Assembly: GCA_016206925.1 (NCBI GenBank)
Contig: JACQQS010000070.1
Location: 1,899 to 65,898 of the forward strand
DNA length: 64,000 bases
Origin: Candidatus Omnitrophota bacterium
GTDB taxonomy: Bacteria; Omnitrophota; Omnitrophia; Omnitrophales; JACQQS01
Reading direction: 5' to 3'
The position numbers were made by a program, and so were the translations under genes. Below the pieces are notes generated by a model, which saw nothing but the letters and a program-made list of their open reading frames with translations, did not search any database and was not told the DNA's origin. The first letter of the stretch is position 1, and each line of letters begins with the position of its first letter. Of this stretch, positions 2,257-28,782 are shown piece after piece.

Positions 2257-3444
2257 ATGGCTTTCTGTCCGGTGGAAGAGCTGATTGCAGAAGTAAAACA
2301 AGGCCGCATGATCATTGTGACCGATGATGAATCACGTGAAAATGAGGGCGATTTGATTTTGGCCGCGCATTTTACGTCGCCTGAAAACATAAACTTCATG
2401 ATGAAACATGCCAGAGGTCTCATATGTATTCCGATGACGGATAGCCGGCTTCAAAACCTTGGGCTTCGCGATATGGTCGATCAAAGTGATGATTCCATGC
2501 GAACGGCTTTTACCGTATCGGTGGATGCCAAGCATGGCGTAACGACGGGAATTTCCGCGCATGATCGATCGCGTACGATAGAAGTTCTCGCCGATCTCAA
2601 GTACTCGGGGAATGACATAGTAACGCCGGGCCACGTTTTCCCGCTTCGCGCAAAGAGAGGGGGAGTGCTCAGACGTTCCGGACATACGGAAGCAGCGATT
2701 GACTTGATGCGGCTTGCCGGGCTGAATGAGGTCGCCATTATATGCGAGATCATAAACGACGATGGTTCGATGGCCAGACTTCCGGATCTCGAGCAATTTG
2801 CGGCAACGCATGGTTTCAAAATGGGAACCATCGCGGATCTTATTAGTTACCGGAGGATGAGAGAAAAGCTTGTTGAATTTGTAGCGGAGGCCGACATACC
2901 GACCAAATTTGGAATGTGGCACGGCAAATTGTACCGATCGCTGATTGATCAAAAGGAGCACATGGCGCTCATTTTTGGAAAAATAGATGAAACACCCCAA
3001 TTGGTACGCGTTCATTCCGAATGTTTTACCGGTGACGTTCTTGGTTCCATGCGCTGTGATTGCCGGGCACAGCTCAATGCGGCTATGGAGAACATAGCTA
3101 AGGAAGGACGCGGAGTATTGCTTTATATCCGGCAGGAAGGACGCGGCATTGGTCTCGCAAACAAATTGAAAGCTTATGCACTTCAGGATCAGGGATATGA
3201 TACCGTGGAGGCCAACGAGAAGCTTGGATTCCGTCCGGACCTGCGCGATTACGGAATTGGCGCTCAAATTCTAAAAGATCTTGGCTTAAGCAAGATCCGG
3301 CTCTTGACCAATAATCCCAAGAAAATTATCGGATTGGAAGGGCATGGTTTACAAGTTGTTGAACGGATTCATATGGATGTTCAGCTCCACGAACTAAATA
3401 GGGATTATGTGCAAACAAAGCGTGAAAAGTTGGGGCATTTTTAG
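2257..3444 (+). CDS. ribBA: Bifunctional 3,4-dihydroxy-2-butanone-4-phosphate synthase / GTP cyclohydrolase II
   Basis: DHBP synthase motifs ([26 protein letters not shown]) are followed by GCH-II motifs ([29 protein letters not shown]). AAGAGG lies upstream of the ATG. Confidence 0.95.
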
Positions 3445-3452
3445 AGCGGGCC

Positions 3453-3968
3453 ATGAGCACTTACACTGGACGATTGGACGCGCGCGGCCGGCGTTTCGGC
3501 CTGGTTGTAGCGAGATTTAATGAATTTATCACGAGGCGGTTGCTGGATGCGGCGCAAAACGAGTTGCAAAGCCTCGGCGCCGAACTCAGTGATATTGACG
3601 TTGCGTGGGTTCCCGGAGCCATGGAGATACCTCTGGCTTGCCGCAAAATGGCAGAAACCGGGCGGGTTGAGGCCGTTATTGCCATGGCTTGCGTTTTGAA
3701 AGGAGAAACATCTCATTTCGAAGAGGTGGCCAGAGAGCTTGCTCATGGCGTTTCAACCGTTGCTTTGGACTCCAGTATCCCGGTTATTTACGGAGCCATT
3801 ACGGCGGATTCGCTCGAGCAAGCCATTCATCGTGCCGGCGGAAAAATGGGAAATAAAGGTCAGGATGCTGCGAGATCTGCTGTAGAGATGGCGAATCTAT
3901 TTCGGTCTCTAGGTGCCGGGCATCCGGAAGTTCAGGCAAGAATACGCCTTTTGAGCGGTGATGCGTAA
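3453..3968 (+). CDS. ribH: 6,7-dimethyl-8-ribityllumazine synthase
   Basis: RFGLVVARFNEFIT..L..GA...L, VPGAMEIP and ACVLKGETSHFE match lumazine synthase. It carries a ~15-aa C-terminal extension that overlaps nusB by 11 nt. Confidence 0.93.
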   Translation: MSTYTGRLDARGRRFGLVVARFNEFITRRLLDAAQNELQSLGAELSDIDVAWVPGAMEIPLACRKMAETGRVEAVIAMACVLKGETSHFEEVARELAHGVSTVALDSSIPVIYGAITADSLEQAIHRAGGKMGNKGQDAARSAVEMANLFRSLGAGHPEVQARIRLLSGDA

Positions 3969-4439: not shown

Positions 4440-5549
4440 ATGAACCGTTTGAATTTGAATTCAACTCATGAACTCTTGATGAAAAAAGCCCTCCAAATAG
4501 CTGAATTAGGGCGGGGGAAGGTGAGCCCCAATCCGCTTGTCGGCGCCTTGTTGGTGAAGAACGGTAATATTGTGGGCCGTGGTGCTCATCTTCGATTTGG
4601 AGGAGTACATGCCGAAATCAATGCTTTACACAGCGCGGGCGCCAGGGCCCGGGGGGCATATCTTTACGTTACGCTTGAACCCTGCTCTTCATGGGGCAAG
4701 ACGGGTCCCTGCGCAGACGCCATCGTTCGTTCTGGAGTTTCTAGGGTCTTTATTGGAGCTATGGATCCGAATCCTGTGAACCATGGAAAAGGCATTCGCA
4801 TTTTGCAGCGTGCGGGATTGAAAGTTGTGCACGGAATTCTGGCGGATCAAGTTTTGCGGCAGAACGCAGGCTTTACGAGCTTGCATCGAAAAGGCCGTCC
4901 TTATGCAATACTCAAGATGGCCCAGAGTTTGGACGGAAAAATCGCAACGTCGAAAGGCGAGTCAAAGTGGATTACCGGTGAGAAGACCAGGGCGTTTGTG
5001 CACCGGTTGCGAACCTCCGTTGATGCCATTCTGGTAGGAACAAATACCATACTTCGCGATAATCCAAGCCTGACTGCGCGGTTTGGCGTTTCAAATAAAA
5101 TGCATCCGGCCAGAATAATAATGGATCGAAAACTGCGCATGGGCACGAGCACAAAGGTGCTCAAGGCGAATGAAGCTCCTGTTTTTTATGCAACGTCTTC
5201 CAAAAATGTTTCTTTAGCTTCGACAGAACGTTTAGCCAAGCGAGCCGAAGTGATCGGCGTTCGCGAGAAAGGGAGGGGTCTTGATTTAAAGCAGTTGCTG
5301 AAAAAGCTGGGCCGGAAGGGAATCACGTCCATCTTGGTAGAAGGGGGCGGGGAACTAGCAGCCTCATTTTTAAAGGAGAAATTAGTGGACGAGGTTTATT
5401 GGTGTATCGCGCCTATTTTTGTAGGCGGCCGTAACTCAAAGACTTCAGTGGAAGGAAGGGGAATCGCAAGATTAAAACACGCATACCGGTTGAAGGACGT
5501 TAAAATACGTCGGATAGGAAACGATATAATCGTAAAAGGCAAGTTCTAG
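4440..5549 (+). CDS. ribD: Bifunctional riboflavin biosynthesis deaminase/reductase RibD
   Basis: CMP/dCMP deaminase zinc motif (HAEINAL ... TLEPCSSWGKTGPC) followed by a RibD_C reductase domain (KMAQSLDGKIA...ILVGTNTILRDNPSLT). Confidence 0.95.
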   Translation: MNRLNLNSTHELLMKKALQIAELGRGKVSPNPLVGALLVKNGNIVGRGAHLRFGGVHAEINALHSAGARARGAYLYVTLEPCSSWGKTGPCADAIVRSGVSRVFIGAMDPNPVNHGKGIRILQRAGLKVVHGILADQVLRQNAGFTSLHRKGRPYAILKMAQSLDGKIATSKGESKWITGEKTRAFVHRLRTSVDAILVGTNTILRDNPSLTARFGVSNKMHPARIIMDRKLRMGTSTKVLKANEAPVFYATSSKNVSLASTERLAKRAEVIGVREKGRGLDLKQLLKKLGRKGITSILVEGGGELAASFLKEKLVDEVYWCIAPIFVGGRNSKTSVEGRGIARLKHAYRLKDVKIRRIGNDIIVKGKF

Positions 5550-5550
5550 C

Positions 5551-6186
5551 ATGTTTTCCGGGATTATTGAGAGATTGGTTATTGTAGAAAAGCTCGAACG
5601 AACATCGAGAGGTGTTCGTTTCGCGATTGCGTACAAAAATGAGGTGGCTCCCGTTCAAGAAGGGGAGAGCATCGCCATTAACGGCGTATGTTTGACGGCT
5701 GCGGCAATGGAGGAAGGAAGATTTTGGGTGGAAGCGGTAAAGGAGACTTTGGAGGCTACGACACTTTCCAGTGTCAAAACACATGATCGCGTCAATCTTG
5801 AGCGTTCGCTAAAGGTCGGCGACAAGATCAGCGGACATTTTGTCTTGGGGCATGTCGACGGCGTTGCTGTAATTCAAAAAGTAAATCGAAATGCGGAGAC
5901 TCATGATCTCACATTAAAAGTGCCTGAAATTTGCGAGCCGTTCATGGTGGCCAAGGGTTCGATTGCTGTCGACGGCATCAGTCTGACTATTCAAGCGGTC
6001 CAGGGGAAAACTTGTTCTGTTGCTGTTATTCCGCATACCGCGGCCATGACGACACTGGGTTTCAGAAAAGAAGGAGACCGGGTGAACCTAGAAACAGACG
6101 TGCTGGCAAAGTATGTCCAATTAAGAAGTAATCCGGAGCAGCCATTTCCGTTTACCGTTGATTCGCTTCGCGAACTGGGGTTTTGA
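5551..6186 (+). CDS. ribE: Riboflavin synthase (alpha chain)
   Basis: N-terminal MFSGIIE and a duplicated lumazine-binding barrel (SIAINGVCLT / SIAVDGISLT). Confidence 0.95.
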   Translation: MFSGIIERLVIVEKLERTSRGVRFAIAYKNEVAPVQEGESIAINGVCLTAAAMEEGRFWVEAVKETLEATTLSSVKTHDRVNLERSLKVGDKISGHFVLGHVDGVAVIQKVNRNAETHDLTLKVPEICEPFMVAKGSIAVDGISLTIQAVQGKTCSVAVIPHTAAMTTLGFRKEGDRVNLETDVLAKYVQLRSNPEQPFPFTVDSLRELGF

Positions 6187-6214
6187 ATCTCCGGTAAAAA
6201 CCGGGTATTTTAGC

Positions 6215-6242
6215 TTGACATAACCCTTTATCAAAATATAAT
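6215..6242 (+). promoter_or_regulatory. Sigma70-type promoter candidate for the DUF4870 gene
   Basis: TTGACA (6215-6220), 16-nt spacer, TATAAT (6237-6242). It lies 24 nt upstream of the SD/ATG at 6266. Confidence 0.5.
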
Positions 6243-6265
6243 TTACAGTAATTTTGGAGGGAAAT

Positions 6266-6610
6266 ATGAGCGAACATTCCGACCCATCGAAAAAAGCCGC
6301 AGATCCGGAAATTGAAGAAGGCAAGTTTTTTGCTGCCGTTGGTTACATCTTTGTTTTGTGCTTGGTTCCGCTGATTCTCAAGAAAGGTAACAAGTTCGCC
6401 GCTTTTCACGGCAAGCAAGGTTTGGTCTTGTTGATCTTAGAAGTGGCGGCTGCCATTTTAAAAGTTGTCCCGGTCATCGGACCGGTGATTGCTACGCTTG
6501 CATTCGTTGTTTTCGGCATTTTGTCGCTCGTAGGCATTTTAAAGGTACTCATCGGAGAGTATTGGGAAATGCCGGTTGTCTATGATATTGCCAGAAAAAT
6601 CAACGTCTGA
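6266..6610 (+). CDS. DUF4870 (Tic20-related) small membrane protein
   Basis: I prefer ATG 6266, preceded by GGAGGG (6256-6261), over the TTG at 6254. It has three TM helices and the K.NKFAAFHGKQGL motif typical of DUF4870/COG3296. Confidence 0.6.
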   Translation: MSEHSDPSKKAADPEIEEGKFFAAVGYIFVLCLVPLILKKGNKFAAFHGKQGLVLLILEVAAAILKVVPVIGPVIATLAFVVFGILSLVGILKVLIGEYWEMPVVYDIARKINV

Positions 6611-20889: not shown

Positions 20890-20918
20890 TTGACTCCACT
20901 TAGAGCCCGTTATAAAAT
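20890..20918 (+). promoter_or_regulatory. Promoter candidate for the ParA-CBM48 operon
   Basis: TTGACT (20890-20895), 17-nt spacer, TAAAAT (20913-20918). Confidence 0.35.
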
Positions 20919-20945
20919 CCATTCCGCTTACGAAAAAGGTGCCTT

Positions 20946-22463
20946 TTGCGCGTCCTTGCCATTTGTAATCAAAAAGGTGGCTGTGGTAAGACGACTACAA
21001 GTATTAACTTAGGGGCATCGCTTTCCTTCCTGGGGAAAAAAATCCTCCTCATAGATTTTGATCCGCAAGCTCACTCCACGATCGGACTCGGTGTAAAGGC
21101 GGAAGAGCTGGAGCAGAGCATTTTTGATGTTCTAAATCCTGAAAGCGCTAAACGCCCCACATTACAGGACATCACCATTCAGGTTGAGAAAAACCTTTGG
21201 TTGGCCCCCTCTCAAATTGTGTTGACGGCTATCGAGCAGCAGCTGGCGGGAGTGCCAAAGCGCGAAGAATATCTGTGGTCTGCCTTAAGCCGTGTACAAA
21301 AGAACTACGATTTTGTTCTGATTGATTGCCCGCCAAATCTGGGTCTTCTTACGTTTAATGCGCTTCGGGCAGCGGGCGAGGCTATCATAACTATCGAGCC
21401 TAGTTCCTTTTCGGTACATGGATTGGTGAAAGTCAATGAGACCATCAATGTATTGAAAGAGCAAATCCAGCATTCGGTTACCGTGCATGCTTTATTGACC
21501 ATGCTTGACAACCGGAACAAGTTTTCCAGAGAAATGGTAGATCAAATTCGGGACATATACCGTGATCGTGTTTTGAGAACGGTGATTCGGAATAACATAC
21601 GGTTGAGGGAAGCCGCACAGGCGGGGCGGCCTATTACAAGATTCGATCGTCACTCTACCGGTTTTCACGATTATCTGAGCTTGGCATCCGAGATGATCGA
21701 ACGTGGCGCGAAGCGACAAACAGCGGATGTGAGTGTACTGAGGGCTGAAGAAGAAAGGCTTGCGAAATTGCTCACCGAACGGGATACAGACAAGTTAGAA
21801 ACATCTCCGTCCGAAGAAGAAAGAATTTTAGATAGCGCATCAGGCGAAAAAGTTGTTGAGGATGAAGAGTCAAGTGAAGAGCAGCTTACGATTTGTTCCG
21901 GAGGGGAAATCGGCGGAGAAGGGGAAACCGAAGAATCAAACGCAGTGTCGGAACCGGCTTCCGTTGAAACCGTTGCGGAGCAGCATTCACCTATTAAGAA
22001 AGAAGACGTGCTTTTTCAAAAAGAACCTCTTACTTCAAAAGGTGTTTCCTTACCGGATACATGCTCTAAAGTAGAGGATTCCGAACCTGTAGAATCTCAA
22101 AATCCCGATGTGACTACCGGAAAAGAAGAGAGACCTCGGGAAAAATCTCCCGCGGTTTCACCGCTTCTGCCCATAAAGGGAATACGCAAGTACCCGTTAA
22201 AGGTTTCGGGAGGATATCTTTTTATTTGCAAGTGTCCCGGGGCAAAAGCAGTGCAGATTGTCGGGGATTTCACGAACTGGATTGCGGTAAATATGAATTC
22301 GCCCGGCGGAAAAAGCGGGTTCTGGACGCGCGTTTTTTCACTAACCCCCGGCTCACACAAGTATAAATTCATTGTAGATGGTGAATGGGTAAACGATATA
22401 AACAACTCGAACTACCAGCGTAACCCCTACGGCGGCATTGATTCTATAGTTGGAGTGCCTTAG
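20946..22463 (+). CDS. ParA/Soj-family ATPase fused via an acidic linker to a CBM48/AMPK-beta-type glycogen-binding module
   Basis: TTG start. Residues 1-255 are ParA/Soj (deviant Walker A NQKGGCGKTTTS, DFDPQAHST, Walker B VLIDCPPNLG). Residues ~256-415 are an E/S/P-rich linker. Residues ~420-505 (YLFICKCPGAKAVQIVGDFTNW...GFWTRVFSLTPGSHKYKFIVDGEWVND) match the AMPK-beta GBD pattern (V.L.GSFNNW...L.EG.H.YKF.VDG.W..D). Confidence 0.85.
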   Translation: MRVLAICNQKGGCGKTTTSINLGASLSFLGKKILLIDFDPQAHSTIGLGVKAEELEQSIFDVLNPESAKRPTLQDITIQVEKNLWLAPSQIVLTAIEQQLAGVPKREEYLWSALSRVQKNYDFVLIDCPPNLGLLTFNALRAAGEAIITIEPSSFSVHGLVKVNETINVLKEQIQHSVTVHALLTMLDNRNKFSREMVDQIRDIYRDRVLRTVIRNNIRLREAAQAGRPITRFDRHSTGFHDYLSLASEMIERGAKRQTADVSVLRAEEERLAKLLTERDTDKLETSPSEEERILDSASGEKVVEDEESSEEQLTICSGGEIGGEGETEESNAVSEPASVETVAEQHSPIKKEDVLFQKEPLTSKGVSLPDTCSKVEDSEPVESQNPDVTTGKEERPREKSPAVSPLLPIKGIRKYPLKVSGGYLFICKCPGAKAVQIVGDFTNWIAVNMNSPGGKSGFWTRVFSLTPGSHKYKFIVDGEWVNDINNSNYQRNPYGGIDSIVGVP

Positions 22464-22466
22464 ACC

Positions 22467-23195
22467 ATGGAAGAGGTTGTGCGTTCTTCTTCCTCGAAGA
22501 ACCCTCGAACAATCAGAGAAGTTTCCCACCTTTTTCTTTCTTCCGTTTCCCATGAAACAGAGAAAGTTACACGAATGCCGTTGATGAGCTGTTATGTAAC
22601 CAGGAATGTCAAGGACGTGAATCGGGCGATCCGGGAGACCGTTCTGTTGCTCCGTGACGGGGAGAAGCTTGTTTATGTCGGCTGCCTGGATGAGAACCCT
22701 TTTCATTTGAAGTCAGCCGCCGAGTTTGAGGTTCTTCAAGTTTCCAGCAGTAGACTCCTCGATTTTCATGCAGCGAAAGAAGCCGTTTCGCTTTCATCTA
22801 AAGTGCTGCCGGAGTATTTCTTTTTAACATTTAGCGAGAATGATTGCGCCTTGCTGGATCCGCTCTTTAGCATGATCAGCATTTATTTGGTTATCCTGCC
22901 ATCTACCGGTCGGGATATAACGGAAGCATACAAATTTATGAAAGCCATAAGCTCGCTCGGCAGTCGTACAAACTGGTTTTTCCGTTTCCACCCGGAAGAA
23001 TCGGTTACCGTAAGCCAGCGGATTGGAGAAGCCTATCAAAAATTTTCGGAAAAATTCTTGCGTGTACCGATCCAAATCTTGCACTCGGGAATACCGGGTG
23101 CGCTCAGACATTGGCAGCATGTACTGACCGAGCCGAATCCGGATTTGGTTCGTGAGCAAAGCCGTCTATTAAGCAGGATTTTTGAGGATGCCTGA
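22467..23195 (+). CDS. Hypothetical protein; possible P-loop-less MinD/ParA-fold relative
   Basis: It starts 3 nt after the ParA-CBM48 stop. The C-terminal two thirds resemble the MinD/ParA core after Walker B (EYFFLTFS....LLDPLFSMISIYLVILPSTGRDITEAYKFMKAI...FL.VPIQILHSGIP). No KGGxGK(T/S) is present. This is by-eye inference only. Confidence 0.45.
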   Translation: MEEVVRSSSSKNPRTIREVSHLFLSSVSHETEKVTRMPLMSCYVTRNVKDVNRAIRETVLLLRDGEKLVYVGCLDENPFHLKSAAEFEVLQVSSSRLLDFHAAKEAVSLSSKVLPEYFFLTFSENDCALLDPLFSMISIYLVILPSTGRDITEAYKFMKAISSLGSRTNWFFRFHPEESVTVSQRIGEAYQKFSEKFLRVPIQILHSGIPGALRHWQHVLTEPNPDLVREQSRLLSRIFEDA

Positions 23196-23883
23196 ATCTA
23201 TTCTGGTTTTCCGAAAACAAACGGCGGAACTCAAAGGTACGGACGCCGATTTGGCATTAAGCTGTGCGGCAGAGTATCTTGATGAGCCATTGCATGCCCA
23301 TCCGGTCGCAACATTTAGCAGCGGGTGCTGTCTTAGCGTCTCACGCACCAAAGGCATTCTCCTGGTGTATTTCTTTAAGAATCCTTCGCTTTTCCTTGGT
23401 AAACTCGGTTCGATGTTGAACGATTACGCCAAGACTTTGAAACTTCGGCATGAGATTTTGGCCAAATATCCTTATTTATCCGCTTCTACCTTGGAAGAAA
23501 AAATAAATGTTTATGTTTTTGTCCCGTCTTTTGAGGAAGATTGGTCCGAAGTCGCCGCTTTGATTCGCATTCCGCTGGAGATCATACCCTTCAGTATCGT
23601 TACTTCACGTAATCAGCAGGCCATTGTACTGGAAAATGGTAGAACCATTCCGCATGGTCAACTTCCGCCCTTGGCGCATTCTTTCGAAGCGGCTAAGGCG
23701 GCGGCGGTTCTATCGCAGCAAGAAGAGTGGGAGCGAGAAATAGTACAGCCGAAACAGCCTTCAACAGCTCTGGAGAGTTACTTCCAGCGAGCCAAGCTGA
23801 ACAGCGAAGAGATAAAATCACTGCTTGATTTTGAGCTGCAGCTTGAGAATATCAAGTCGTCTACTTCTCAAATTTCCGTCTAA
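23182..23883 (+). CDS. Hypothetical protein (233 aa), third gene of the ParA-CBM48 operon
   Basis: It overlaps the upstream gene by 14 nt. I recognise no family. The C-terminus is E/Q-rich. Confidence 0.45.
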   Translation: MRMPESILVFRKQTAELKGTDADLALSCAAEYLDEPLHAHPVATFSSGCCLSVSRTKGILLVYFFKNPSLFLGKLGSMLNDYAKTLKLRHEILAKYPYLSASTLEEKINVYVFVPSFEEDWSEVAALIRIPLEIIPFSIVTSRNQQAIVLENGRTIPHGQLPPLAHSFEAAKAAAVLSQQEEWEREIVQPKQPSTALESYFQRAKLNSEEIKSLLDFELQLENIKSSTSQISV

Positions 23884-23930
23884 TTCCTCCTGCCAAAAAT
23901 TCTTCTGGGGTATTCAAACAAATATGATAG

Positions 23931-23961
23931 AATGCAAATCCATCTTGCATTTTCATTTTTT
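23931..23961 (+). terminator. Rho-independent terminator candidate closing the ParA-CBM48 operon
   Basis: ATGCAA / TTGCAT stem (6 bp) with loop ATCCATC, followed by TTTCATTTTTTT. Confidence 0.5.
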
Positions 23962-24017: not shown

Positions 24018-24740
24018 ATGGACACATCATTCAAGGGCACATTCATATCGACATTGAAGCAAGCGCAGGTCTTGGATAAGGAAATCTACGATCTCAGTGC
24101 CATGGTTGAAAATATTCCCAAGGAACTCAATGCGCTCAACGAAGATTTCCGGATACGGAAGGCCACCCTCGAAAGCCTAACCCAGGAATTGCGAGCGCTC
24201 CAGCTCAAGCACAAAGAGTTGGATAATGATCTCAAAGCACGCGAAGCTAACGTAACGAAATTGGATGCGCAGCTTTCTCAGGTTAAAACCAACAAAGAAT
24301 ATGCGGCTTTACAGCAGGAGATCAGAGCGCTCAAAGCGGACATTTCTTTGGTAGAAGAGAAGATCATATTGCTGTTCGACGAAATAGATGCCCAGCAGGC
24401 TAAAGTAAATCTCGAGAAAGAACGATTGAATCAGGAAGAAGCGGTTCTTACCCGAAAGAAGAAGGAGATTGAGGAACAAAAAGCCAAATCCCTTGAGCGG
24501 ATCAAGGATCTTACCACGCAGAGAGCCGATATTTTGAAGCAGGTTGACCGAGAAATCGTCAACCGGTATGAAAGTATAGTTAAACATAAAGACGGCTTGG
24601 CTCTATCACCCCTTCAGGATGAGAATTGCGGTGTTTGTCAAATGACCATTCGGCCGCAGGTGCAAAATGAAGTGCGATTGGCCGGAAGACTGGTCTTTTG
24701 CGAAAGTTGCGGCCGCATTCTTTACGCCGACAACGCTTGA
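24018..24740 (+). CDS. COG1579/DUF164 coiled-coil protein with a C4 zinc ribbon
   Basis: A long coiled coil followed by C-terminal CGVCQM....(18)....FCESCGRILY, as in the zf-RING_7/COG1579 family. Confidence 0.8.
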   Translation: MDTSFKGTFISTLKQAQVLDKEIYDLSAMVENIPKELNALNEDFRIRKATLESLTQELRALQLKHKELDNDLKAREANVTKLDAQLSQVKTNKEYAALQQEIRALKADISLVEEKIILLFDEIDAQQAKVNLEKERLNQEEAVLTRKKKEIEEQKAKSLERIKDLTTQRADILKQVDREIVNRYESIVKHKDGLALSPLQDENCGVCQMTIRPQVQNEVRLAGRLVFCESCGRILYADNA

Positions 24741-25001: not shown

Positions 25002-25457
25002 ATGTTCTACGGTGAATATGAACATGCTCTCGATGCCAAAGACCGCGTTATTATTCCGGCAAAGTTCCGCGAGGTATTCAAGGAACAGTATGCTGAAAAA
25101 TTCTATATGACACGGGGGCTTGATCGGTGCCTGTTTCTATTCATCGAAGAGGAGTGGCGCATCCAGGAAAAAAAACTGAAGTTGCTCTCGTTCACGCGGG
25201 AGCAAGCGCGTGCTTTTAACCGTTTATTTTTCTCTGGTGCAAGCGAAGTGACTTGCGATAAGCAGGGGAGAATTCTGATTCCCCAATATTTGAAGAAGTA
25301 CGCCGGCATCAATGAGCAAGTGATGATTATCGGGGTAACCAATCGAGTAGAAATCTGGGATAAAAACACGTGGGGAAATTTCAGCCAGAAGCATCTTGGA
25401 TCTTATGAAACGCTGGCGGAAAAACTTCTAGAAGGAGAGGGAGGACAGCCTGCATGA
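25002..25457 (+). CDS. mraZ: Division/cell-wall cluster transcriptional regulator MraZ
   Basis: MFYGEYEH.LD.KDRVIIPAKFR and a second SpoVT-AbrB half (CDKQGRILIPQ.L...AGI) are the MraZ duplicated-domain signature. Confidence 0.95.
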   Translation: MFYGEYEHALDAKDRVIIPAKFREVFKEQYAEKFYMTRGLDRCLFLFIEEEWRIQEKKLKLLSFTREQARAFNRLFFSGASEVTCDKQGRILIPQYLKKYAGINEQVMIIGVTNRVEIWDKNTWGNFSQKHLGSYETLAEKLLEGEGGQPA

Positions 25458-25798
25458 AGCCAAGAGTTATCCGAAAAGATTCTTCCGTAAACGTTTTTGT
25501 CTGTAACGGTGATTTAGATGCGCCGCACATGACTCGCATAAGCCACAAAGTTTCCCGCCTAATGCATCGAAGACATATCAACGTTCTTCTGGATTTACGC
25601 AAAGCGCGTTTTGTGGATCTGGCGAGTCTCGGTATTCTGGTGGATCGTCTTCGAAAAATACGCCAGCGGGAGGGCGATATTCGCTTGTGCAATCTTCGGC
25701 CTCGTGTTTCCGAAACGCTCAGACTGGTTGGTTTAAACGGATTGATTCAATCGTTTGGCACACGAGAGGAGGCTTTAGAGAGTTTTCATTTTGCATGA
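25454..25798 (+). CDS. STAS-domain protein (anti-sigma-factor antagonist-like)
   Basis: ATGA overlap with the mraZ stop and an 8-nt overlap with the rsmH start. STAS pattern: V.V..GDLD......I......L......NVLLDL....FVDLASLGILV....K....EGDIRLCNLRP.V.ETLRLVGL...I. Confidence 0.8.
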   Translation: MKPRVIRKDSSVNVFVCNGDLDAPHMTRISHKVSRLMHRRHINVLLDLRKARFVDLASLGILVDRLRKIRQREGDIRLCNLRPRVSETLRLVGLNGLIQSFGTREEALESFHFA

Positions 25799-27099: not shown

Positions 27100-28782
27100 G
27101 TGTTAGAGAGTCGTCTTCAGATTGTCACGGGGTTCATGGTCTTGTCCTTCCTTTTTTTGCTCACTCGCCTATTTTCGCTCCACATTCTGGAGCATACCTA
27201 TTGGACGGAATATGCCGCGCGCCAGCACAGGTTGACGCTTACCATTCCTCCCGATCGCGGGATGATTCTGGATCGTAACGGCAAGCCGCTCGCAACTTCA
27301 AAACTGGCTCCCTCGGTGTACGGTGTTCCTTATGAAGTGACCGATATTAAAACGGCGGCCAGGACGATTTCGCCTATTTTGGGAGAGAAGTCTGATTTCA
27401 TAACGGAACGCTTGGCGAGAGAAAAATCATTTGTATGGATTAAGCGGCAGGTGACGGATAAAGAGGTTTCGGAACTCAGGCGGCTGGCGGTTCCCGGAAT
27501 AGCCATCCGATATGAAAATAAGCGATTTTATCCGCAGGGTGAGCTGCTGGCTCCGGTGCTGGGCTTCTGTAGTATCGATGAGACGGGTCTTGAAGGCATT
27601 GAATTGGCATACAACCATTATCTTGCGGGAAGGTCCGGAGAGCGGTCAACACGCCGGGATGCGCTCGGAAGGCCGCTTGCCGCGTTTGACCAGAAACTCA
27701 TTTCGGCTGTTGACGGGCACAATATTACCCTGACGGTTGACCGATTCATTCAGTTTCACACGGAGGTCGCATTGCGCGAAGCCATTGAAAAATGGAAAGC
27801 CAAAGGCGGCATGGCCGTTGTCATCAATCCGCATACCGGCGAAATTCTCGCGATCGCCTCGTTGCCTTCCTTTGATCCGAATAACTTCCAGGATGTTTCA
27901 ACCGAGCAGCGCCGCAACAAGCCGATCACGGACTACTATGAACCCGGTTCGACATTTAAGTTCATTACCGCTTCGGCAGCTTTGGAAACTCAGATGTTCA
28001 CTTTTGACTCCAGGATTTATTGCGAAAACGGAGCATACAAAGTGAGTTCGCATATCCTGCATGACGTGAAGCCATACGGTGAGATCGCGTTTCCCGAGGT
28101 ATTCATTAATTCGAGCAATATCGGAACGGTAAAGATCGCCCAGAAAGTCGGAGCACAGAAAATTTACTCCTACGTGAAAAAATTCGGATTTGGCGAAAAG
28201 ACGTTGGTAGATTTGCTGGGAGAGGAGCAGGGCGTAGTTTATCCTCCGGAAAAATGGTCAAAGCTTTCCATAAGCGCAATTCCGATCGGTCATGAAGTGG
28301 GTGTAACGGCCTTGCAAGTTGTGCGGGCTATTTCGGTGATTGCCAATGGTGGAAAGTTGATGCGGCCATATATTATTAAAGAAGTCAGAGATCAGAAAAA
28401 CGGAATGCTCATTGAGCGGCGCGAACCGGTTTTGGAGAGACGGGCGATTGAGCCGGAAACCGCCAAACAAGTAAATGAAATTCTGAAACGCGTCATAGAG
28501 GAAGGCACCGGAAAGCAAGCCAAGATACCGGGCATTGCCGTTGCCGGCAAGACCGGAACGGCGCAAAAGTTAAATCCCGATGGGAAAACGTACGCGCATG
28601 ACCGGCATGTCTCTTCGTTCGTGGGATATGTGCCGGCGGATGATCCCCGGTACGCCATGGTTGTGGTTATCGATGAGCCCAAAGGAAAGTATTACGGCGG
28701 AACGGTTGCCGCACCTGTGTTTAAAGCCGTATTACAAGAAGTACTTCTTCAGGAAGGGATCCTGTCTGAAGCCCGCGCCTGA
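27100..28782 (+). CDS. ftsI: Penicillin-binding protein (FtsI/PBP3-type class B transpeptidase)
   Basis: N-terminal TM anchor and PBP dimerisation domain. Transpeptidase motifs: SxxK (GSTFKFITA), SxN (NSSNIG) and KTGT (AGKTGTAQ). Confidence 0.9.
   Translation: MLESRLQIVTGFMVLSFLFLLTRLFSLHILEHTYWTEYAARQHRLTLTIPPDRGMILDRNGKPLATSKLAPSVYGVPYEVTDIKTAARTISPILGEKSDFITERLAREKSFVWIKRQVTDKEVSELRRLAVPGIAIRYENKRFYPQGELLAPVLGFCSIDETGLEGIELAYNHYLAGRSGERSTRRDALGRPLAAFDQKLISAVDGHNITLTVDRFIQFHTEVALREAIEKWKAKGGMAVVINPHTGEILAIASLPSFDPNNFQDVSTEQRRNKPITDYYEPGSTFKFITASAALETQMFTFDSRIYCENGAYKVSSHILHDVKPYGEIAFPEVFINSSNIGTVKIAQKVGAQKIYSYVKKFGFGEKTLVDLLGEEQGVVYPPEKWSKLSISAIPIGHEVGVTALQVVRAISVIANGGKLMRPYIIKEVRDQKNGMLIERREPVLERRAIEPETAKQVNEILKRVIEEGTGKQAKIPGIAVAGKTGTAQKLNPDGKTYAHDRHVSSFVGYVPADDPRYAMVVVIDEPKGKYYGGTVAAPVFKAVLQEVLLQEGILSEARA

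Follow-up and report, generated by a model that had tools for sequence, protein, structure and literature searches.

A widespread ParA/MinD-type gene module whose ATPase bears a predicted glycogen-binding domain

We analyzed a compact three-gene locus (genes 1 to 3) in a 64,000-nucleotide (nt) stretch of a Candidatus Omnitrophota genome (GenBank assembly GCA_016206925.1, contig JACQQS010000070.1, positions 1,899 to 65,898, forward strand), referred to here as the window, whose own numbering is used below. Gene 1 encodes a Soj/ParA-type ATPase that ends in a carbohydrate-binding module (CBM) of the CBM48/AMPK-beta type, gene 2 encodes a P-loop-less relative of FlhG and FleN, and gene 3 encodes an orphan protein. 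As judged from sequence comparison, the module is a real, widespread, and undescribed variant of ParA/MinD positioning systems and not a categorically new kind of system. Our tentative interpretation, held with somewhat less than even confidence, is that it is a ParA/MinD-type positioning module whose ATPase would carry its own alpha-glucan hook and would distribute glycogen. No paper describing a ParA protein with a glycogen-binding domain, or a module of this composition, was found in the literature searched, which agrees with an earlier note on this DNA that knew of no described system of this type. The three genes are the following.

20946-22463, + strand: gene 1, 505 amino acids (aa), TTG start; ParA/Soj-type ATPase, acidic linker, and CBM48/AMPK-beta-like module
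22467-23195, + strand: gene 2, 242 aa; P-loop-less FlhG/MinD-like pseudo-ATPase
23188-23883, + strand: gene 3, 231 aa; orphan protein in which a variable linker joins a ~150-aa alpha/beta domain to a C-terminal helix

All three products are identical to NCBI entries of a Candidatus Omnitrophica metagenome-assembled genome (MAG), where they appear as "AAA family ATPase," HY587_07725, and HY587_07730, respectively.

The C-terminal module of gene 1 and its putative sugar-contacting segments map to the following positions.

22206-22460, + strand: CBM48/AMPK-beta-type CBM, aa 421-505 (Pfam AMPK1_CBM and CBM_48)
22263-22280, + strand: platform Trp in GDFTNW
22362-22388, + strand: platform Lys and Trp in YKFIVDGEW
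22428-22445, + strand: platform segment YGGIDS

The earlier note had assigned the C-terminal ~85 aa of gene 1 to the AMPK-beta/CBM48 group, and this assignment held. Residues 430 to 495 scored above both Pfam cutoffs (AMPK1_CBM, E = 8.5e-11 and 42.3 bits with a cutoff of 26.8; CBM_48, 25.9 bits with a cutoff of 22.4). The best solved relatives were the glycogen-binding CBMs of AMPK beta1 and beta2 (~1e-6), and the further nearest sequence relatives were glycan-binding CBMs from pullulanase, SEX4, and LSF1. Residues W100, K126, W133, L146, and N150 of AMPK beta1, which we take to be the sugar-platform residues of the AMPK beta1 CBM-cyclodextrin structure, are occupied by W, K, W, Y, and D in the window protein. 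Across 184 ParA-CBM proteins, the position of W100 was Trp in every case (184/184), that of K126 was Lys or Arg in 181, that of W133 was Trp in 176, and that of N150 was Asn or Asp in 176. The carbohydrate-contacting aromatic residues whose presence the earlier note had left to be checked are therefore in place, with the Trp/Lys/Trp set kept in ~96 to 100% of family members, and from this conservation it follows that the sugar platform is under purifying selection. The module is predicted to bind glycogen or another cytoplasmic alpha-glucan.

Some ParA-CBM clades also carry a short conserved peptide beyond the CBM, at the extreme C terminus of the protein. These tails end in ...EEILNE/ILDE in P0005 to P0011 and P0022 and in ...KPVEFPELM in P0030 and P0040 to P0047, and they may constitute an additional interaction motif.

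The remainder of gene 1 consists of the ATPase core and the linker.

20946-21710, + strand: ParA/Soj ATPase core, aa 1-255 (Pfam AAA_31, 1e-51)
20973-20996, + strand: Walker A motif KGGCGKTT, residues 10-17; motif invariant in the family alignment
21048-21068, + strand: Walker A' motif LIDFDPQ; motif residues invariant in the family alignment
21315-21335, + strand: Walker B motif VLIDCPP; motif residues invariant in the family alignment
21504-21521, + strand: LDNRNK, containing the Arg equivalent to Soj R189, mapped by comparison with Bacillus Soj
21711-22205, + strand: acidic Ser/Glu/Pro-rich linker of 165 aa, probably disordered

An intact Soj/ParA core with a deviant Walker A motif had been read from the sequence, and database comparison bore this out: the core matched AAA_31 with 175.9 bits (cutoff, 27) and CbiA at 2e-18 with 67 bits (cutoff, 25.4). 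The closest solved structures were ParA (8ray; 1.4e-47) and Soj of T. thermophilus (1wcv; 5.8e-37). In a 30-sequence family alignment, residues K10, G11, G12, G14, K15, and T16 were invariant, as were the aspartates of Walker A' (D37 and D39) and Walker B (D129). No dedicated NCBIfam model exists for gene 1, every match being far under its cutoff. Given the intact ATPase motifs, gene 1 is, in our proposal, an active Soj-like ATPase. Its R190 (in LDNRNK) is the equivalent of R189 in B. subtilis Soj (in DAR-TN), a residue that matters for nonspecific DNA binding, and is almost invariant in the family. Most likely, the ATP-bound dimer of gene 1 binds the nucleoid nonspecifically. The Arg of RNxRLxE was also considered as the R189 equivalent and was rejected; counting in Bacillus Soj puts R189 in DAR-TN, whose Arg is kept.

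The linker that follows the core, which the earlier note had put at ~160 acidic residues, is 165 aa long with a net charge of -17, an isoelectric point of 4.5, and high Glu (18%) and Ser (11.5%) contents. Linkers in the ParA-CBM family range from 15 to 167 aa (median, 30), placing that of gene 1 at the long end.

As a single sequence, gene 2 gave no Pfam, NCBIfam, or PADLOC match and contained no GK[ST] motif; Pfam and NCBIfam likewise returned no match to a ParB N-domain (CTPase) or a helix-turn-helix (HTH) domain. Close homologs are few (five by word-indexed search), and a full HMMER search in which a gene 2 profile was run against 1.8 billion representatives yielded only 11 proteins, none of which was a ParA. 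Early hhalign comparisons that used tiny alignments were not significant, and the homology of gene 2 became clear only after its orthologs had been harvested from the open reading frames (ORFs) downstream of ParA-CBM genes (167 loci, 6268 ORFs), which were searched iteratively. Started from the Omnitrophota gene 2 profile, this search retrieved syntenic proteins in about a dozen other loci, followed by the orthologs in loci L012 and L019 (1.6e-7 and 6e-12, respectively), with bona fide ParA proteins appearing last. A profile of 27 P-loop-less orthologs, from which those of L012 and L094 were excluded, matched FlhG (4rz2/4rz3) at 3.4e-19 over profile positions 45 to 255 of 270 and FleN (5j1j) at 2.7e-12 over almost the whole fold. 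Alignment of gene 2 with ParA profiles by hhalign was colinear (E = 9.8e-5 over 200 columns; E = 1.1e-3 in another run).

The GK[ST] motif was absent from 44 of 45 gene 2 orthologs. The sole keeper is the syntenic protein of L012 (TGGDRTPGKST), which passes the Pfam ParA and CbiA cutoffs and matches FleN at 1.5e-10. By these sequence criteria, gene 2 is related to FlhG and FleN but catalytically dead and is classed as a pseudo-ATPase; its earlier description as a P-loop-less protein of the MinD/ParA type is thus sharpened to the FlhG/FleN branch. An AlphaFold2 model of gene 2, built from an alignment of five sequences only, had a mean predicted local distance difference test (pLDDT) value of 32, and its Foldseek search against the PDB returned noise (template modeling scores of <0.2). 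A candidate MinD-like membrane helix at the C terminus of gene 2 was rejected, as this stretch aligns with the last core helix.

At the N terminus of gene 2, a basic stretch precedes a motif of strong conservation, which reads RTIREVSHLFLSS in the window.

22497-22544, + strand: N-terminal partner peptide of gene 2, KNPRTIREVSHLFLSS, resembling the N-terminal ParA-interaction motif of ParB

Residues R14 to S26 of this peptide are invariant among close homologs. Variants in other gene 2 orthologs include KLGRGLEDFSHFFLS (L162), KLGRGLDEVADFWLS (L008), KRLGKSLDDISHFFLS (L019), LSEISHLFLSS, and KKLIRGLKDISPLF; the window version retains the Arg and the hydrophobic tail and has lost LGxGL. The LGRGL-type variants resemble the N termini of the ParB/Spo0J proteins that this data set contains downstream of ordinary Soj genes. 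When a profile hidden Markov model (HMM) of the peptide (a 17-mer) was run against 3925 N termini, virtually all matches with an E-value of <0.03 were ORFs directly downstream of ParA(-CBM) genes, including proteins outside the training set of the model. Among the 13 best non-ParB matches of a ParB N-peptide HMM run against 2446 N termini, 7 were ParA(-CBM) partners, each of them weak (E = 0.05 to 7), where we estimate that ~0.3 would be expected by chance. The N-terminal peptide of ParB stimulates the Soj/ParA ATPase. Because of its ParB-like N-terminal peptide, gene 2 is likely to be an activator of the ATPase.

Related peptides also head other neighbors of ParA-CBM genes, namely an upstream single-pass membrane protein of ~190 aa (MTRDEIYDHLAKVYLGK) and a group of 180-aa proteins (MEKKSLGRGLEDIADIFISQKK).

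L013:7423-7998, L014:334-927, L020:6532-7101, L021:7408-7977, L026:369-941, L091:4610-5179, and L138:5432-6037: upstream membrane partner, in Omnitrophota loci without gene 2
L089:1088-1627, L092:1535-2083, and L112:271-819: third partner type, ~180 aa, directly downstream of ParA-CBM, starting with MEKKSLGRGLEDIADIFISQKK

The upstream membrane partner begins with M(T/N)(R/K)(D/E)EIY(D/E)HLA(K/Q)VYLGK, continues with a poly-Lys stretch and a transmembrane helix, and is apparently an alternative kind of ATPase partner that is anchored in the membrane; loci with this partner encode a small membrane protein downstream as well. Proteins of the third type carry the most ParB-like version of the peptide, with no detectable FlhG-like body. 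Since the peptide is found on several partner types, the ATPase with its CBM is the constant element of these loci, and the peptide-bearing partner is interchangeable. Portability of this kind makes the N-terminal peptide a practical marker for finding the partners of orphan ParA proteins in genomes.

Locus L094 encodes, ~1 kb downstream of the module (4587-6434), a 616-aa protein whose basic N terminus contains KKLGKGL. Its scores with the two gene 2 HMMs, that of the peptide and that of the body, were weak, and it may be a second partner-like protein in this locus.

The gene 3 protein of the window has no relative in Pfam, NCBIfam, or the PDB. A word-indexed search found three relatives, and gene 3 profiles of 11, 19, and 22 sequences gave no match against PDB sequences. 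An AlphaFold2 model from a shallow alignment reached a pLDDT of 49, and Foldseek retrieved only noise from the PDB. The gene 3 domain (~150 aa) was nonetheless found downstream of gene 2 in Omnitrophota, Myxococcota, Gammaproteobacteria, Nitrospirae, and loci without a phylum assignment, and in at least five loci it is fused to the C terminus of gene 2 (HMM E-values down to 1e-21).

L105:7366-8916, L124:7275-8762, L132:2161-3711, L147:7283-9001, and L149:7274-8443: gene 2-gene 3 fusions, by HMM
L071:9425-10711 and L087:2033-3286: gene 2-gene 3 fusions in Phycisphaerae, recognized by eye

In the fused proteins (390 to 575 aa), the N-terminal peptide and the FlhG-like body are followed by a linker rich in Pro and Ala and then by the gene 3 domain, which forms the extreme C terminus. 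We propose that the products of genes 2 and 3 cooperate physically. In several phyla, gene 3 proteins that are free-standing carry, after a variable linker, a tail helix that is absent in the fused forms.

23794-23844, + strand: conserved motif in the C-terminal tail of gene 3, KLNSEEIKSLLDFELQL; alignments give the pattern L-[ST]-x-E-E-x-x-x-hydrophobic

Hints to the origin of the domain came from two orthologs with subthreshold NucS matches (L094, 5.5e-5 and 22 bits with a cutoff of 216; L012, 0.03), which fall at the start of the NucS nuclease domain. In the L094 ortholog (2919-3617), the N-terminal domain also matched two candidate defense families of PADLOC, PDC-S11 and PDC-S18 (~1e-7). 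In the window protein, no NucS similarity was detected, and the gene 3 alignment contains no conserved E-x-K motif. PADLOC gave nothing meaningful for genes 1 to 3 of the window, the best match (E = 0.009) extending over 30 residues at the P-loop. As a lead, the gene 3 domain could be derived from a NucS-like or inactivated PD-(D/E)xK fold.

In two Myxococcota loci (L006:7517-8050 and L007:7886-8458), the third gene is unrelated to gene 3. Its product (177 to 190 aa) has an alpha/beta-hydrolase-like GxGxG elbow without the Ser. Other Myxococcota loci (L015 and L016) have a normal gene 3.

The architecture of gene 1 is widely distributed. Its best 120 matches among 5.8 billion proteins all had PF16561 beside ParA domains. 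Counting one genome per species, full-length ParA-CBM fusions were present in Omnitrophota, Planctomycetota (Planctomycetia, Phycisphaerae, Sedimentisphaerales, and Kuenenia), Myxococcota, Gemmatimonadales, and Gammaproteobacteria, including Thiogranum. A metagenome scan seeded by the CBM alone, for which a 10-sequence alignment was used (a 26-sequence version being too diverse), added 80 further loci. The complete three-gene module recurs in Omnitrophota, Myxococcota, Gammaproteobacteria, and Phycisphaerae and, without the CBM, in Nitrospirae. Among 63 distinct full-length ParA-CBM loci, a downstream partner with the N-terminal peptide was identified in 30 and the upstream membrane partner in 9, while the flanks were too short in 5. 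The gene 3 domain was found in 19 of the 22 N-peptide-partner loci with at least 1.8 kb of downstream sequence.

Conservation of the three-gene neighborhood in relatives, which the earlier note had named as a point to check, was thus observed, the genes traveling together across phyla in otherwise differing surroundings. Neighbors in the clade of the window are NadD and CNNM genes, those in another Omnitrophota clade are genes for IleRS, a two-component system, and an HD-GYP protein, and those in Myxococcota are Ppx-GppA, EI24, and a PGM_PMM-family gene. Because the neighborhoods outside the three genes differ between phyla, the module behaves as an autonomous unit.

ParA-CBM proteins of 406 to 465 aa for whose genes no partner was recognized on either side (L096, L106, L111, L114, L131, L137, and L150) adjoin genes for secreted or exported proteins. 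Members of this group appear to be true orphans or to have a partner encoded elsewhere.

In the mechanism that we tentatively favor, the Soj-like gene 1 protein would bind the nucleoid in its ATP form, while the CBM, tethered on a long and flexible acidic linker, would hold glycogen or other alpha-glucan bodies. The ParB-like peptide of gene 2 would dock on gene 1 and, together with gene 3, would trigger ATP hydrolysis and release. Through repeated binding and release, glycogen particles would become spread or segregated across the nucleoid and would not simply accumulate at the poles in a passive manner. Glycan binding, DNA binding, stimulation of the ATPase by the peptide, and glycogen as the cargo are all steps that we infer from sequence. 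The more general claim, that a dedicated ParA machine positions alpha-glucan bodies in several phyla by means of a hook on the ATPase, a pseudo-ATPase activator of degenerate FlhG type that has gained a ParB-type peptide, and a new orphan domain that may bind DNA, is doubtful by our own estimate.

Several observations weigh against glycogen as the cargo of such a machine. Signature motifs of glgA, glgB, glgC, glgP, and GH13 were absent within ~7 to 8 kb at ~100 loci, and Pfam analysis of the 10 largest ORFs in the window revealed housekeeping genes only, with no glycogen genes. No recognizable partner was found nearby in 19 of the 63 ParA-CBM loci, some of which show the motif by eye. A Nitrospirae MAG (L019:8001-10410) encodes a 300-aa ParA without a CBM, followed by orthologs of gene 2 (with the peptide LDDISHFFLS) and gene 3; therefore, the core of ParA, pseudo-FlhG, and gene 3 can exist without the glycan module. 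Finally, genes 2 and 3 together resemble a ParB analog with an activating peptide and possibly a NucS-like DNA-binding fold, and it could therefore be these proteins, and not the CBM, that mark the cargo. The last point leads to the main alternative, which we consider rather unlikely and in which the CBM would anchor or sequester the ATPase on glycogen, or report the status of the carbon store. The actual landmark, or the cargo itself, would in that case be the gene 2-gene 3 complex as a ParB analog that unites an activating peptide, a scaffold, and a NucS-like domain that may bind DNA. DNA or a division structure would then be placed relative to glycogen bodies, or segregation and division would be coupled to energy reserves. 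The location of the ParB-like peptide on gene 2, the weak NucS matches among gene 3 orthologs, the CBM-less module of L019, and the gene 2-gene 3 fusions of some lineages, whose architecture recalls a single ParB-type adaptor, would all fit this arrangement. It is also consistent with the position of the Omnitrophota module directly upstream of the mraZ-rsmH-ftsL-ftsI cluster and with the report that glycogen condensates of E. coli displace nucleoids and shift the division site (PMC12706056). However, the window gene 3 itself has no detectable NucS similarity, neither catalytic nor typical DNA-contact motifs are evident by eye, and the link to the division cluster is limited to Omnitrophota. 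Moreover, the partners vary while the CBM is constant, a pattern that fits a CBM-bound object as the common cargo.

The absence of a genomic link to glycogen metabolism would be expected if no glycan were involved at all and the CBM48-like beta-sandwich had been reused to bind gene 3, gene 2, or another protein. Possible ligands would be the N-terminal peptide of gene 2 and the C-terminal tail of gene 3, and a precedent exists in the CBM of AMPK-beta, which also packs against the kinase domain. We regard this explanation as quite improbable, however, as the best-kept residues of the module are those of the sugar platform (Trp, 184/184; Lys or Arg, 181/184; Trp, 176/184) and its nearest sequence relatives (AMPK-beta, pullulanase, SEX4, and LSF1) are glycan-binding CBMs. 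A role in anti-phage defense or mobile-element maintenance, in which a ParA-like ATPase would act with a nuclease-fold protein, appears extremely improbable. The PDC-S11/PDC-S18 matches of the L094 gene 3 ortholog (~1e-7) and the different neighborhoods of the module in different phyla point in this direction, but the window genes themselves had no meaningful PADLOC match, and inspection of gene 3 by eye revealed no conservation of catalytic residues of the nuclease type. In addition, the locus lies among housekeeping genes (obg, proBA, nadD, and the division cluster) with synteny kept within Omnitrophota, and no integrase, transposase, or plasmid genes were seen adjoining the module.

The gene boundaries proposed earlier required partial revision. 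Genes 1 and 2 are indeed separated by exactly 3 nt. An overlap of 14 nt between genes 2 and 3 is obtained only if gene 3 starts at the TTG at 23182 (ORF, 23182/23188-23883); the ATG at 23188 is the more likely start, because the NCBI gene 3 model has 231 aa and homologs begin with MPEP or MSEP, and it reduces the overlap to 8 nt. Two putative expression signals flank the genes.

20890-20918, + strand: sigma-70-like promoter match TTGACT-N17-TAAAAT, 10/12 positions; a weak indication
23925-23961, + strand: AT-rich hairpin (8-bp stem, -9.9 kcal/mol) followed by a T-run; a weak terminator-like site

On the basis of the promoter-like sequence at 20890 and the hairpin plus T-run at 23931-23961, the locus had been called a self-contained operon. 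Both elements are present in the sequence, but four such promoter sites occur in the region against 4.6 expected in shuffled sequences, and the hairpin has a z-score of -0.64 relative to shuffles and was missed by a terminator scan. As evidence for an operon, the two signals are without statistical support and no better than chance; the boundaries of the operon therefore rest on the intergenic gaps of ~130 nt and on comparative evidence.

The Omnitrophota module is located directly upstream of the mraZ-rsmH-ftsL-ftsI cluster, a linkage confined to this phylum. A coiled-coil and zinc-ribbon protein (24018-24740; Pfam Zn_ribbon_9 and, weakly, CT398_CC) is always encoded between gene 3 and mraZ in Omnitrophota (also in L001 to L005). 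It is missing from the module in other phyla and, for this reason, probably stands outside the core system; a lineage-specific link is less likely. Between mraZ and rsmH, a 114-aa STAS-domain protein of the anti-sigma-antagonist type is encoded (25454-25798; also in L001 to L005). Its gene, at the head of the division and cell wall cluster, is kept in all related Omnitrophota loci examined and occupies an unusual position. The division cluster of the window seems to end after ftsI (27100-28782): up to 31179, a minus-strand ORF and a GCS2-type glutamate-cysteine ligase follow, with no mur or fts genes in this partly annotated part of the window.

In bacteria, ParA/MinD ATPases are the general means of positioning chromosomes, plasmids, carboxysomes, chemoreceptor arrays, flagella, and the divisome, and to our knowledge no carbohydrate store is among their known cargos. 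If the proposed mechanism were true, active segregation of a carbohydrate store would be seen for the first time, and a new cargo class would be added to the ParA/MinD family. The module would also be the first ParA system whose adaptor is itself a dead member of the ParA/MinD family, and its design, in which the motor carries the cargo hook and a pseudo-enzyme acts as the activator, would be new. In E. coli, glycogen is described as a condensate that gathers passively at the pole, where it displaces the nucleoid and causes division to be skewed (PMC12706056). A conserved ParA protein with a built-in glycogen-binding module would make control of glycogen inheritance a directly testable question.

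Among known systems, the module shares with chromosomal ParABS of type Ia (ParA/Soj with ParB/Spo0J) a Soj-like core with a deviant Walker A motif and the Arg equivalent to Soj R189. The basic peptide at the start of the adjacent partner, which is of the LG(R/K)GL type in some orthologs, may likewise correspond to the N terminus of ParB. The module differs in that this partner is a dead FlhG-like ATPase accompanied by an orphan domain, with no ParB fold or HTH by Pfam and no known parS, and in that the ATPase bears a CBM48; we know of no described ParA that carries one. FlhG and FleN resemble gene 2 in that the profile of its orthologs matches them over almost the full length, and FlhG activates its partner NTPase, FlhF, by an N-terminal peptide. 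In contrast to FlhG and FleN, gene 2 has lost the P-loop in 44/45 orthologs, has no evident C-terminal membrane-targeting helix, and has no flagellar genes nearby; its peptide is ParB-like, whereas that of FlhG has a DQAxxLR motif.

Parallels in proposed function are offered by McdA/McdB, which positions carboxysomes, and by PpfA/TlpT, ParC/ParP, and PomXYZ, in which, as proposed here, a ParA-type ATPase with small partners distributes a cytoplasmic body other than DNA. McdA structures are detectable relatives of gene 1 (~2e-13), and PomXYZ consists of three proteins with an activator that acts via an N-terminal peptide. In these systems the link to the cargo resides on the adaptor, whereas here the candidate cargo module is on the ATPase and the adaptor includes a pseudo-ATPase; genes 2 and 3 have no sequence similarity to any described adaptor. 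The CBM itself is like the AMPK-beta CBM and CBM48 domains of SEX4, LSF1, pullulanase, and the N-domains of branching enzymes, scoring above the Pfam cutoffs with the Trp/Lys/Trp platform kept. What differs is the host protein, here a ParA ATPase and in the other cases a kinase scaffold, a phosphatase, or a glycoside hydrolase. PhaM tethers polyhydroxybutyrate storage granules to the nucleoid for inheritance, and MinD carries a surface-targeting membrane helix at the C terminus of the ATPase. Neither is homologous to the arrangement in gene 1. PhaM does not belong to the ATPases, and the MinD element has lipid, not glycan, as its ligand; as functional analogies only, each fits one reading of the C-terminal CBM, that of a cargo tether in the case of PhaM and that of a matrix anchor in the case of MinD.

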